Positions 2,529-10,880 of a stretch of 11,552 bases of DNA are shown piece by piece (position 1 is the first letter of the stretch; each line of letters opens with the position of its first letter). The notes below the pieces were generated by a model. The model made no database searches. It had not been told where the DNA came from and worked only from the letters and a program-made list of their open reading frames with translations. Origin of the DNA: a virus; UHGV virus genome UHGV-1585826. One strand, written 5' to 3'. Made by a program: the position numbers and the translations under genes.

Positions 2529-5500
2529 ATGGCTTATTCCGATGAACAGCGCCCTGAAGCGCAATTTGGCAACCAGAGCCGCAACAGCCTGAACATTCAG
2601 CAGCCGGGAGAGACTGACAGCTATGATGTGTTTTTCTCCGATCCCAATCGCTGGAAGGACAACAGCACGTCGTTCAGCCTGGGCGATGTATTGCCAACTA
2701 TGGGGAAAGGTGTCGCCCAGTCCGTCCGGGGGACAGGGGAAATGGCCCGTGGACTCGGTGATGCGATGATTCAGAGCCCGGTAAAAACAGGGGCACGTAT
2801 TTTAAATGAGTTCAGCCGTATGGGGCTGCCGGGAGTAGCAACTGTTCAGGATATTTTTGTCGGTGGCAGCAAGGGGGCGGATGAGGTCATCGACACTCTG
2901 CCTGATGGAAAAAATGCGGTTACTGATACTGTCGGTAAAGGTCTGAAGGTCACAGGCAAGGCAGTCAGTGGCGGCGCTAAAGCCTCGGATGAATGGCTGA
3001 CTGGCAAGATGTCGCCGGGGGCGCAGCGGGCGCTGAATACACCGATGACTGAAGGATATGATGATTCAGCGGTCTGGGTAGCGAAAGGGGTTAACCTGAT
3101 TGGTGCGCTTGTACCGGATATGGTTGCAGGCGGTGTGACTAAAAAGCTGGGTGATGTCACTCTGCGAAAAGTGCTGACCGCCGGGCTGGAGAAAAAATAC
3201 ATCGCGGCAGGGATGCAGCCGGAAAGAGCCACAGCACTGGCAGCCGAAGCTGTCGATAAAAAAATGCCGGATTTTTTCCAGGCAGGCCTGATCACCCATT
3301 CCACTGTCAGTGCGCAAGGGCGGAGTGCAATGGCAGCGGCAGATGCTGTTCTTAACGCGGATTATTCTGAGCTGGCGAAGTCACCGAAATTTCAGCAGAC
3401 CTTTTTGTCAATTGATGCAGATCCGCAGCACGCGCAGCTTACTGACCGCCAGAAAATGGACCTGGCAAAAGAGCGTGTTGCCGATGAGGTGCGTGCGCAA
3501 CTGGCAACCGATCCTGAATTGCTGGCTGTGAATGCCATGGCGGCAAAACTGGGCGATGCTCAGTTGCTTAATCTGGCGATGCGGGGCACGGCGAAGACCG
3601 TTAAAAGCGGCATTGTCAGAAATGCCACGGAACAGGGGACGATTAATGCGGCGCAGGGTGGCTATTCACGCTATCAGGAAAACACGGCATTGCGTGAGAC
3701 CGCCGGAATGGATGTGTCACCGTGGGAGGGCGTGGCTGACGCAACGATCGAAGGTGCAGCCCTTGGTGCTGCAATGGGGGCACCATTCGGTGCGGCTGCC
3801 GGATATCGTGGAAAACGTCAGGCGGCAGATGAAGCAGCCATGCGTGAGGCTGAAAGCGTTCCTCAGGACGAATCGGCTCCGCAACCCGAACCGGTTGATC
3901 CGGTGGCACAGCATCGTGAATCTATGCAGGGGATGAATCGCGAGCAGCTTCTGGAACAGTATGCTGATGCGGATATGGCACATGAGGGAGACACGTCTGC
4001 CGTTCATCGCCGGGAAGCCGCCAGCCAGCTGTTGAATGAACTGGATGAACAGGCGAAGCGACAGGCGGTGATGGATGAGCTGAAGGCGAAGCCGCGCCCT
4101 GAACTGCTTGAGGAATACCGAAAACTCAGCCAGAAGGAAGGGCGTACTGATACTGAAGAGCAGCAGTTACAGGCAATACGTGATGTGCTTCGCCCTCAGC
4201 GGGAGGCCAGACCGGAGGCACAGCCACAGCCGGAAAATGCGGATGATGGCGACGGGAGTATTTACCCGACGGTGCGGTTCCGCGATCCGGATGAAGTTCG
4301 TATTGAAATTAACGAGAGTGGTGCGTCCAGACCAGCAGAACGCATTGAAAAGGTGCGTCCGGACAACCGTTATTTCACGGATGAAAAAAGTGCTCTGGGG
4401 AGCGACGTTTTCCGCAATGCCAGCGCCACCGGCCTGAAACCGTCCGTAGTGAAGAAAGGCGAGAATCAGTATGCCGTTGAAATGGATAATCCTGCGTTCT
4501 CTGAAGATGTGGCAACGGAGACCATTAACACTCTGGCTGACGGAGAGCGTATTACTGATGCTGATCCGATGGAACAGCCCGCGTTCATGCGTGACCCGCG
4601 ATTCCGTGGTTTTACGGGGGATGATACAGAAGTGCAGGCCCGTCTTGCCCGTGGCAACGCGCCGACGGCGGAAGAACTGGTGCGTTCCCAGATGGCTGAA
4701 GGTGATGCCGGTCCGACAGCACAGGAGTTAACTGAGCGTCCACGCCTTCCCGCTCCCGGCGATATTCATCCCGGACAGGGATATCCGTTACCAGGAGAAG
4801 TGGCGCGTACGCCGGATGAAAATCAGGCCGGACGTGGTGGTCGTTTTACCACAACCGGTGAGGTGAAGGGCCAGAGTTTCCAGAAAGGACGTGAGCAGGC
4901 ACCGGAAAATGCCGCTGGTCGCCAGGGGGAAATACTGGAGGGCGAAACAGTTCGTCGTGGTCTGCCGTCACCGGATGAGCAGAACGCCACAGCACCAGTG
5001 CGTGAAGGACTTCCTGCACCTGAAAGTCAGCGTGGGGTTGATATGCCACAGCCTGAATCACTCCCTCGTATGGTTCGTGACTCCCTTCCGGAACTGGCAC
5101 AGCAGGCAGAAGCACGCAGACAGACCGGGGATAATCGCCAGACCATAACCGATGTTCCGGATACTGAGGTGCCGGTGCCGGTAGATAAACCGAGCACTCA
5201 CCAGCAGGTGCGTGGTGCGAAAATTGAAGACTTTGGCGAGGAGATTAAGGGCGCGGCAAAACACCGTTATGCGCAGCTTGCTGAAGCTATGGGTAAAACG
5301 CTGGAGGATGGGGAGTACGCGACACAACCACTGAGCAAACTGTTTCCAAAGCCGGATTATGCCCGTCTGGAAAAAGAAGGTGTGGATAGTGACACGCTGG
5401 CAATGATGGCGTTGTATCGCAGTGAAATTCCCACCAGAACAAGCCGTAACATGCAGAAATGGATCAGCATTGTTAAAAGCGGTCGCGAAGCTACTGCCGG

Positions 5501-10880: not shown

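Follow-up and report, generated by a model that had tools for sequence, protein, structure and literature searches.

A giant polyvalent protein of short-tailed Stx phages, probably ejected from the virion, with profile-level homology to the N4 virion RNA polymerase's N-terminal domain

The long open reading frame (ORF) in UHGV virus genome UHGV-1585826 probably encodes a giant virion protein of short-tailed Stx phages (933W/Sp5/phi24B type) that is polyvalent and is ejected. Comparison of the predicted protein from the window, meaning the whole stretch of 11,552 nucleotides that was analysed, identifies it as the orthologue of Sp5 ORF80/ECs1242, 933W L0134 and phi24B gp47: it shares 90% identity from end to end with phi24B gp47 (vb_24B_48), its C-terminal 949 residues are 95-99% identical to those of Stx phages (~97% for 933W L0134), and the match to phrog_616 spans the entire protein. 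These Stx phage proteins possess the same set of Pfam domains and differ in length, with 2,793 to 2,811 residues versus 2,783 in the window. Short-tailed Stx phages disseminate the genes for Shiga toxin in E. coli. As an essential, virion-packaged protein whose gene takes up ~14% of the genome, the giant protein is the obvious candidate for their ejection machinery. The initial annotation, which had proposed an injected polyvalent or ejection protein, was correct in substance, and both the gene and the ejection idea have already been published. What is new here is the homology to the N-terminal domain (NTD) of N4 gp50, the placement of two HExxH motifs in zincin-type domains, and the recognition of a conserved C-terminal chassis of ~950 residues; in addition, two published labels, 'MuF-C metallopeptidase' and 'AAA+ ATPase', are corrected.

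As initially described, the gene consists of one unbroken reading frame with a good ribosome-binding site, the ATG following 5 nt downstream of GGAG, and no sigma-70-like site was found upstream, in agreement with the claim that it lacks a promoter of its own (Table 1). A terminator-like hairpin and T-run immediately precede this ribosome-binding site, and since the phi24B annotation indicates Q antitermination of the late transcripts of these phages, read-through of this element would be expected. The compositional features that had been noted were likewise recovered, including moderately hydrophobic Gly/Ala-rich stretches close to both ends of the protein, an acidic, Pro-rich linker of low hydropathy (estimated at ~460 residues initially; net charge per 100 residues of -10, -8, -6, -2 and -6; no family match for the linker tile) and two HExxH motifs. 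Cysteine is entirely absent from the 2,783 residues, which would fit a protein that crosses the periplasm unfolded, and searches for tandem repeats and Rfam families gave no matches.

Table 1. Coordinates of the giant ORF, its predicted domains and its surroundings in the window.
Feature	Position (nt)	Strand	Residues	Remarks
Portal gene, 3' part	1..1187	+		P22_portal family (Pfam, 4e-71); outside giant protein, context only
Chimeric ORF	1345..2460	+	371 aa	
Terminator-like hairpin and ribosome-binding site	2492..2523	+		Hairpin 2492-2511, T-run to 2518, GGAG 2520-2523
Giant ORF	2529..10880	+	2,783 aa	2,783 codons, uninterrupted
N-terminal module	2652..3812	+	aa 42-428	Homologous, by profile comparison, to NTD of N4 vRNAP gp50
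Linker	3846..5318	+	~aa 440-930 (~490 residues)	Acidic, Pro-rich, low complexity
LPD5	5667..6098	+	aa 1047-1190	Pfam, 4.5e-43
Zincin-type metallopeptidase domain 1 (predicted)	6096..6818	+	aa ~1190-1430	HEWFH at aa 1274-1278 (nt 6348-6362)
Zincin-like domain 2 (predicted)	6876..7508	+	aa ~1450-1660	HEIIH at aa 1541-1545 (nt 7149-7163)
MuF_C	7746..8015	+	aa 1740-1829	Pfam, 1.5e-17
C-terminal chassis	8031..10877	+	aa 1835-2783	Large, mostly helical

It has been demonstrated that an Sp5 deltaORF80 mutant produces heads filled with DNA and zero plaques, the gene thus being essential (PMC5155283). In phi24B virions, gp47 accounts for 10,962 peptide-spectrum matches (PSMs) and is outranked by the coat protein alone, while its signal peaks in the top gel slices, mostly at very high molecular weight, suggesting that little processing of the protein occurs within virions. 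The same protein does not appear in the cryo-EM map and model, and the authors of that study put it forward as an ejection protein carried inside the capsid; the proposal of a virion ejection protein for the window is therefore borne out to the extent that a 90%-identical relative is abundant in virions and invisible in the map. In JC1, a phage of the sister clade, 51 unique peptides of the chassis-type giant gp69 were obtained from CsCl-purified virions. These data also bear on the concern, already raised with the initial annotation, that the ORF might be an assembly or annotation artefact fusing several genes, to which only its unusual length and mosaic composition point. Finished E. coli chromosomes and phage genomes carry the same ORF, annotated at ~2,783-2,811 aa, it is present in independent assemblies, and peptides across phi24B gp47 were seen at very high apparent mass, which refutes this explanation and leaves it a negligible chance.

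On the other hand, the Sp5 authors assigned ORF80 to tail assembly, citing a COG1483 AAA+ match, and the normal-looking, DNA-filled heads of their mutant were not bound by an antibody against the tail fibre ORF67 (PMC5155283). The protein might accordingly be a tail-assembly or structural protein of the tape-measure, hub or chaperone type, required for tail-fibre attachment rather than for carrying effectors, but we regard this as unlikely. The cryo-EM model of phi24B, comprising portal, adaptors, nozzle, needle and fibres, explains the tail without gp47, although the latter was abundant in the same sample; neither an ATPase nor a tape-measure family was found in Pfam/NCBIfam with the whole protein or tiles; and the N-terminus is homologous, judging from profile alignments, to that of an encapsidated and ejected protein, N4 gp50. 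Moreover, the loss of an internal portal-channel protein could secondarily destabilise tail attachment. The COG1483/AAA+ assignment itself (Mondal 2016) was not reproduced, as no ATPase family was returned by Pfam/NCBIfam at permissive thresholds.

The family searches with the whole protein and with tiles, of the kind that had been recommended, identified the domains of a polyvalent protein, so that the assignment to this class was confirmed. Pfam matches to LPD5, LPD1 (7.7e-23), MuF_C and LPD38 (3e-46) are all far above the cut-offs, and several unrelated domains, LPD types among them, thus reside in one polypeptide, along with a zincin-like metallopeptidase (MPTase) hub (HEXXH plus a downstream Glu) and a native gene neighbourhood of late and virion genes in a portal-terminase phage. 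LPD5, LPD1, LPD38, the MPTase hub, the PBECR domain and the late-gene context are all shared with the polyvalent proteins of Iyer 2017, from which the window protein does not differ in kind; LPD38 was listed there as a short domain, whereas here it forms part of a conserved fold of ~900 residues. Within LPD5, which has been termed 'potentially enzymatic' (Iyer 2017), R1165, R1172, G1174 and R1178 are conserved among 41 sequences.

Both HExxH motifs fall outside the stretches that Pfam annotates as LPD5, LPD1 and MuF_C, and they belong to zincin-type domains, not to MuF_C. In the first of these domains, LPD1 (aa 1351-1430) corresponds to the C-terminal helical part, NCBIfam CLCA_X matches aa 1172-1427 at 3.2e-45, which is below that family's cut-off, and among 50 homologues, 86-94% retain the residues H1253, E1255, H1274, E1275, H1278, D1281, E1365 and E1372. 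The phage-type MPTases of Iyer 2017 carry a strand-2 His and an Asp three residues past HEXXH, with which the first domain agrees, its motif reading HEWFHSLD (aa 1274-1281); an AF2 model places three strands before the HExxH helix. For the second domain, 38 homologues were compared, of which 89-92% retain H1541, E1542 and H1545, and hhalign relates it to the first domain (84.5%, E 6.9e-6) and to the N4-family MPTase (66.6%, E 5.4e-5), with HExxH aligned over HExxH. These profile alignments are suggestive of a zincin-like domain that is possibly related to the N4-family MPTase; the corresponding relationship for the first domain was unsupported (14.7%).

MuF_C has been described as a PBECR domain (barnase/EndoU/colicin/RelE fold), a predicted RNase (Iyer 2017), and in the window protein H1742, D1758, S1765, T1767, Y1808 and Y1827 are invariant across 14 homologues. 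With Foldseek, this region gave a weak, non-significant hint of similarity to the BECR CDI toxin complex 6cp9 (probability 0.63), and the head-morphogenesis domain that forms the N-terminal part of MuF/SPP1 gp7 head proteins is missing, in that only MuF_C (PF18819) and no Phage_Mu_F match was found. The label 'MuF-C metallopeptidase' of the phi24B preprint consequently joins two different things, as MuF_C has the PBECR RNase fold and the HExxH motifs lie 200-470 residues upstream. Catalysis by the zincin and PBECR domains is predicted from conserved residues only.

The N-terminal module provides a link to a structurally characterised system, from which a testable model may be borrowed. When aa 42-425 were compared by hhalign with an NTD profile of eight schitoviruses, a match to aa 106-448 of gp50 was obtained (98.9%, E 3.6e-17, 290 columns) that depends on a diverse profile, as a narrow N-terminal profile built from Stx and Salmonella sequences only fails to reach N4. 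Negative controls for this comparison scored 0.1% and 0.6%, and the N-terminal HMM gave 43.8 bits versus -6.1 for the best shuffle. From these alignments, aa 42-425 are homologous to the lipid-binding NTD of N4 gp50. It has been reported that this domain inserts into nanodiscs and anchors the virion RNA polymerase (vRNAP) to the ejectosome, that residues 220-300 of gp50 contain predicted membrane-spanning helices, and that a low-complexity linker connects NTD and RNA polymerase (PMC13434306). The gp50 segment 220-300 aligns to aa 178-263 of the window protein, which include the most hydrophobic segment of the giant protein (aa 182-200, nt 3072-3128); this is the only segment that approaches the hydrophobicity of a transmembrane helix, and the single 19-mer above 1.3 on the Kyte-Doolittle scale lies here (aa 181/182-200). 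A Gly-zipper-like stretch is found at aa 406-433, for which the Gly-zipper Pfam matches are weak. Iyer, Burroughs, Anand, de Souza and Aravind (2017) drew no connection between the N4 NTD and other proteins.

Further parallels with N4 concern architecture and gene order. Like the Stx phage giant, gp50 is a very large protein that is packaged in the capsid, does not show up in virion maps and has a long low-complexity linker after its NTD; the giant gene is the last of the structural operon in N4, JC1, phi24B and intact E. coli prophages; and an N4 gp56-type coat protein is common to N4 and the phages with a giant of the window type. The cargo differs, being peptidase- and RNase-like in the window protein versus a T7-like RNA polymerase domain in gp50, of which the window protein has none: no RNA polymerase family was returned by Pfam/NCBIfam, and BLASTP against gp50 gave no polymerase alignment. 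Homologues of gp51 and gp52 were likewise undetectable by BLAST for Stx phages, whose late proteins, compared with N4 gp51-gp54 and gp57, yielded no match below E 0.01.

At the other end of the protein, the ~950-residue helical chassis is conserved across one podophage lineage, and LPD38 covers only aa 2466-2671 of it (nt 9924-10541). The giants of the Bcep22 gp75, JC1 gp69 and Ralstonia GP4-like type have the chassis in common with the window protein (~27% identity over ~85% of its length); they are virion-associated by mass spectrometry and end the morphogenesis module. The phages that encode them have a portal, a coat and head-closure proteins that are homologues of the 933W ones. A PDB sequence search with the whole protein gave no match, and a fold search with aa 1040-2783 found no solved structural relative, ejection and core proteins included, in a PDB copy comprising releases to 8 April 2026, which full-length N4 structures (June/July 2026) probably postdate. 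A relationship between the chassis and the C-terminal domain (CTD) of N4 vRNAP was rejected by hhalign (0.5% with the CTD profile, 0.2% with the single sequence).

It had been suggested that the protein is analogous to P1 DarB and to the internal proteins of T7 (gp16) and P22 (gp7, gp16, gp20), all of which are packaged in the head and exit with the DNA. For all of these a functional analogy stands, whereas no relationship in sequence, or in fold over aa 1040-2783, was found, and the comparison with DarB fails on its domains. A DarB-like antirestriction protein packaged with the DNA against type I restriction, as in phage P1, would be in keeping with the match of phrog_10089, annotated as 'DarB-like antirestriction', to aa 2344-2671, and with the DarB-like annotation of chassis-bearing giants in Ralstonia and Burkholderia phages. 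However, this match is confined to the shared C-terminal LPD38 region of a profile of 4,647 positions, and the methyltransferase (N6-adenine) and helicase that define DarB were not found in the window protein, whole or in tiles. The label of the relatives derives from central domains missing here, as their giants of ~4,500 aa possess transglycosylase, methylase and helicase regions that the window protein lacks, and an antirestriction role of this kind is thus very unlikely. The envelope-penetrating and anti-defence activities that had been expected found no counterpart either: Pfam/NCBIfam revealed no envelope-degrading lysozyme or transglycosylase domain, the T7 gp16-type lytic transglycosylase included (no SLT/lysozyme family), and a demonstrated anti-defence domain was not found.

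The N-terminal and C-terminal modules recur in giants of 1,700-4,700 aa with varying central effectors. This observation can be read to mean that the ~400 N-terminal residues constitute a delivery or anchoring module common to N4-type vRNAPs and many polyvalent giants, with cargo swapped between lineages and the LPD38 chassis as a second, lineage-specific module, a proposal whose chances we consider about even. Carriers without LPD38 would then include giants with ddrB-ParB, LPD39 or methylases. If true, Stx phages, Bcep22/GP4-like phages and schitoviruses would share one ancestral system for threading a beads-on-a-string giant down a short tail and attaching it to the inner membrane, the swapped cargo being RNA polymerase, peptidases, RNase or DNA modifiers, while the chassis would serve encapsidation or conduit formation with a fold new to experiment.

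For the Stx phage giant we propose the following mechanism. Translation of the Q-antiterminated late transcript would yield the protein, a few copies of which would be packed in the capsid as loosely joined domains; upon release of the tail needle it would be expelled via the tail, with or before the DNA. By analogy with the proposal for N4 gp50, the N-terminal module may bind to or insert in the inner membrane and the ejection conduit, and the linker would allow the cargo domains to reach the cytoplasm or periplasm. After ejection, the zincin domains would probably process the polypeptide itself or host targets, and RNA may be the substrate of the PBECR domain. For the chassis, the best guess is a part in encapsidation or in forming the conduit.

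The position of the gene in the window requires a separate explanation. The initial annotation had assigned it to a head module of P22-like type, with scaffold and coat on either side, and while it does follow the portal gene on the same strand here, this adjacency is due to a real deletion, which has removed 14,744 bp that intact prophages possess, and is not the native arrangement. Positions 1..1187 are 100% identical to L003 20001-21187, and the neighbouring sequences up- and downstream of the giant gene match Stx phages from window position 2346 onward, the junction being a 6-bp microhomology (CGGGTA, 2346-2351). The supposed scaffold-like gene is a chimera, as its residues 1-335 come from a post-portal head-assembly gene (Sp5 ORF61 type, phrog_479) and its last 36 residues are the C-terminus of an Sp5 ORF79-type gene, fused in frame; the latter is the normal predecessor of the giant ORF in intact phages. 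The resulting portal/ORF61-ORF79' fusion precedes the giant gene in the window, owing to the deletion, and not in Sp5, 933W or phi24B. The synteny comparison that had been called for thus exposed the deletion and showed that in intact phages and prophages the giant gene is the final gene of the late morphogenesis operon, with the portal gene ~15 kb away. An exact-protein look-up found the same fusion plus giant gene on contigs of independent assemblies, while the exact junction sequence had no matches in representative genomes and IMG/VR.

Because the prophage containing the window is defective, without capsid and tail genes, the intact giant gene is here a recent relic and no longer functions as part of a virion. 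That such an ORF persists in a prophage unable to build capsids could also mean that the host kept it for its own use, e.g. against incoming elements, as suggested for captured polyvalent proteins by Iyer 2017; in strains 95NR1 and 95JB1, moreover, tail genes were lost independently in a second event, associated with IS1203, that likewise left the giant ORF intact. This is nevertheless highly improbable: the deletion is too recent to reveal selection, given the 99.98% identity between the retained DNA and the O104:H4 Stx2 phage, its end points look like simple microhomology-mediated loss, the gene has no promoter of its own, and PADLOC returned no match. For genome scanning, the recent relic carries the caution that the gene order of prophage fragments may stem from deletion, as with the false head module here. 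No coat gene lies within the window, and the coat protein of its relatives is of the N4 gp56 family, not of the P22 type.

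The 2,783-residue protein encoded by the giant ORF is a polyvalent protein of the phage type and carries the testable features that define this class. The LPD5, LPD1, MuF_C and LPD38 families of Pfam all match far above their cut-offs, and PHROG 616 matches the protein from end to end. It is orthologous to ORF80 of phage Sp5 and to gp47 (vb_24B_48) of phage phi24B, sharing 90% identity with the latter over its full length, while its C-terminal 949 residues are 95-99% identical to those of Stx phages including 933W (L0134). The main idea of the initial annotation, an injected polyvalent or ejection protein, is thus correct and was already in print, as the gene family is known, virion proteomics included. 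It was from polyvalent proteins that Iyer et al. (2017, PMC5512222) defined the LPD domains, among which they gave LPD38 as phage-type-specific, along with the zincin MPTase hub and the PBECR (MuF-C) domain of RNase fold.

Features of the window and of the giant protein (aa, residues of the giant protein)
Feature	Position	Strand	Remark
Portal, C-terminal part	1-1187		P22_portal family, 4e-71
Terminator-like hairpin with T-run	1204-1229		Gap after portal gene
Chimeric ORF, in frame	1345-2460		Junction 2346-2351; 14,744-bp microhomology deletion
Terminator-like hairpin with T-run	2492-2518		Gap before giant gene
RBS GGAG	2520-2523	+	5 bases 5' of giant-ORF ATG
Giant ORF	2529..10880	+	2,783 codons, no interruption
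LPD5	aa 1047-1190		Pfam
HExxH domain 1	~aa 1190-1430		Pfam LPD1 is its C-terminal part
LPD1	aa 1351-1430		Pfam
MuF_C	aa 1740-1829		Pfam
LPD38	aa 2466-2671		Pfam
GC-rich hairpin, no T-run	~10888-10911		Just past giant-ORF stop codon
91-aa ORF, phrog_3658	11004-11279	+	Downstream of giant gene
DUF551 gene, start	11281-11552	-	Downstream of giant gene

By profile comparison, the N-terminal module of the giant protein is homologous to the N-terminal domain (NTD) of N4 gp50, the virion RNA polymerase (vRNAP). When 1.84 billion representatives were searched with a profile built on residues 1 to ~470, 104 proteins matched, 54 of them giants of 1,716-4,665 aa with the module at their N-terminus; 30 of these 54 end in a C-terminal chassis shared with the giant protein (where it is aa 1835-2783), and all three chassis-less giants that were scanned possess other polyvalent-type domains (ddrB-ParB, LPD39, methyltransferases, LPD5/LPD1). 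An HMM built from chassis-bearing giants only gave gp50 a score of 43.8 bits; of 300 shuffles matched in composition, the highest-scoring one reached -6.1. With hhalign the module reached 97.2% against gp50 alone and 98.9% (E 3.6e-17, 290 columns) against a schitovirus NTD profile of eight diverse vRNAPs, four of which were also matched individually at E <=1.6e-10; the negative controls gave 0.1% (N4 C-terminal domain, CTD) and 0.6% (reversed NTD). Residues 42-425 are paired with gp50 106-448, and gp50 220-300 is the counterpart of residues 178-263, where the protein is at its most hydrophobic. It has been reported that membrane-spanning helices are predicted at gp50 224-278, that the gp50 NTD inserts into nanodiscs and is proposed as the anchor that holds the vRNAP at the gp51 tunnel and at the inner membrane, and that it is followed by a low-complexity linker, the remainder being packed as beads on a string (2026 N4 study, PMC13434306).

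No earlier statement of this link was found in the accessible literature, since searches with the N4 N-terminal region had retrieved N4-like proteins only (Iyer et al., PMC5512222) and the 2026 phi24B preprint (10.64898/2026.04.10.717836) draws no relation between gp47 and N4. What is new is modest and comprises this homology, corrected domain boundaries and a chassis that is an orphan at the fold level. Identity with the N4 vRNAP itself was rejected, the polymerase and CTD being absent from the giant protein, as was identity with DarB (methylase and helicase absent), with a MuF head protein and with a T7 gp16-type protein. The COG1483 AAA+ ATPase label of Sp5 ORF80 was not reproduced with Pfam or NCBIfam, and PADLOC, Rfam and tandem-repeat scans found nothing.

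HEWFH at aa 1274 and HEIIH at aa 1541, the two HExxH motifs, both fall outside MuF_C, and the "MuF-C metallopeptidase" label used in the phi24B preprint was therefore rejected: MuF_C is a PBECR RNase-fold domain, and the HExxH domains lie upstream of it. NCBIfam CLCA_X spans domain 1 at aa 1172-1427 (3.2e-45, below the family cut-off), and among 50 homologues 86-94% retain its residues H1253, E1255, H1274, E1275, H1278, D1281, E1365 and E1372. Judged by these residues, the domain fits the phage-type MPTase, for which a strand-2 His and an Asp three positions past HEXXH have been described (Iyer et al. 2017, PMC5512222). H1541, E1542 and H1545 of domain 2 are conserved in 89-92% of 38 homologues; its comparison with domain 1 (84.5%) and with the N4-family MPTase (66.6%, HExxH aligned on HExxH) is suggestive only of a relationship. 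An AF2 model of aa 1040-1840 (pLDDT 79.9) predicts each HExxH on a helix after three strands, a zincin topology. In MuF_C, a predicted RNase domain, H1742, D1758, S1765 and T1767 are invariant in 14 homologues. Within LPD5, a short Arm-DNA-bind_4 match (~5889-5960, aa 1121-1144; 23.6 bits on the tile vs a cut-off of 22.3, 24/47 profile positions) adjoins invariant Arg residues, which hints at nucleic-acid binding.

Homologues of the chassis span ~95% of it, down to 33% identity, and are fused to methyltransferases, ART-PolyVal, LPD3, InPase, GGDEF and other partners. Matches by tblastn were found in Stx, Vibrio, Ralstonia (Heva, NK-7, RPZH3), Burkholderia (DC1, CSP3), Bacillus megaterium and Pelagibacter phages.

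Published work on the orthologues bears on function. Sp5 ORF80 (2,793 aa) is essential, and its deletion mutants package DNA into normal-looking heads that bind no anti-tail-fibre antibody, its function not being settled by that study (Mondal et al. 2016, PMC5155283). According to the phi24B preprint (10.64898/2026.04.10.717836), gp47 is detected in purified virions, is missing from the cryo-EM model and is proposed to be an encapsidated ejection protein. In the supplementary gel-slice table it is second only to the coat protein (10,962 PSMs), and the counts in the four highest-mass slices (2,188, 1,686, 1,187 and 1,260) indicate that it is mostly very large and little processed. JC1, a Bcep22-like phage of the sister clade that shares homologous portal, coat and head-closure proteins with 933W, likewise has a virion-associated giant (4,515 aa; 51 unique peptides), whose gene closes the morphogenesis module (PMC9144972). 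The same supplementary table places gp48 (421 aa, ORF79 type) clearly in phi24B virions (1,634 PSMs); its gene (27853-29118 of the phi24B locus), which corresponds to the essential Sp5 ORF79, natively precedes the giant gene, and the accessible preprint text makes no mention of gp48 in the structural model. Its position makes gp48 a possible partner in ejection, comparable to N4 gp51/gp52, but BLAST found no similarity to those two proteins.

Four points are established: the architecture, the kinship of the N-terminus with N4 gp50, the virion association of the orthologue and essentiality. A probable course of events beyond these points is that the giant protein would be packed within the capsid and expelled via the tail once the needle is released, its N-terminal module engaging the inner membrane or the conduit, the acidic linker spanning the envelope and the cargo domains acting after ejection. 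As most of the virion protein is intact, processing by the zincins, whether of the chain or of host targets, would come late, and the chassis may serve encapsidation or conduit building. The main conflicting datum is the tail-fibre phenotype of Sp5, for which we conjecture secondary tail instability in particles without an internal portal-engaging protein.

The genomic setting had been misread on account of a genuine deletion in the window. An intact prophage of E. coli FORC_069 matches positions 1-2351 with 100% identity through its portal and post-portal genes; from 2342/2346 onwards the window matches this prophage again, 14,744 bp further along, and matches the O104:H4 Stx2 prophage at 99.98% identity. 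The only sequence common to both parents at the junction is CGGGTA, and it overlaps the TAA codon that ends the post-portal gene. What had been called a scaffold-like gene is thus a chimera, with aa 1-335 from an Sp5 ORF61-type head-assembly gene (phrog_479) and the last 36 aa (2352-2460) from the ORF79-type gene (421 aa), of which they are the C-terminal end; the deleted segment held the N4-gp56-family coat gene, adaptors, tail fibre, nozzle, lom and other genes. The junction is no assembly artefact, because on at least 24 contigs of the collection searched, from independent assemblies, an identical fusion of 371 aa precedes the 2,783-aa gene. These include two E. coli assemblies from NCBI as well as metagenome contigs from ENA, those of gut among them, and the names of the ENA contigs point to different assemblers. 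The complete E. coli genomes of RefSeq all lack the fusion.

The upstream neighbour was rightly assigned to the portal family, but its adjacency, and with it the placement of the giant ORF in a P22-like head module, is a product of the deletion. In the intact relatives FORC_069, O104:H4 and phi24B the late operon ends with the giant gene, ~15 kb from the portal, and asking what separates scaffold from coat is therefore moot. The prophage in the window is unable to make capsids and its giant gene is a relic; as the DNA is 99.98% identical to an active phage, no inference on selection is possible. A second, independent, IS1203-associated insertion/deletion in E. coli 95NR1 (7530-9340 of its locus) and 95JB1 removed tail genes but spared the giant ORF, which remains intact at 8.4 kb with chromosomal yfdC right behind it. 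Such repeated survival in defective prophages might be chance or meaningful.

The reading of the giant ORF itself held on recomputation: it has a good RBS, no sigma-70-like site was found upstream of it in the window, ~aa 440-930 are net-acidic, Pro-rich and of low hydropathy, and Gly/Ala-rich segments lie close to both termini. Kyte-Doolittle hydropathy exceeds 1.3 in a single 19-mer only (aa 181/182-200). Cysteine, with a typical frequency of ~1%, would be expected roughly 30 times in 2,783 residues and is absent, which would fit unfolded passage through the oxidising periplasm. The two terminator-like hairpins flanking the chimeric ORF are the best two with T-runs in the window and both are exactly intergenic. 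The total of such hairpins does not exceed that expected from shuffling. At these two, a Q-antiterminated late transcript may read through. Downstream of the giant gene, the 91-aa ORF and the DUF551 gene are kept at the same position in the O104:H4 prophage.
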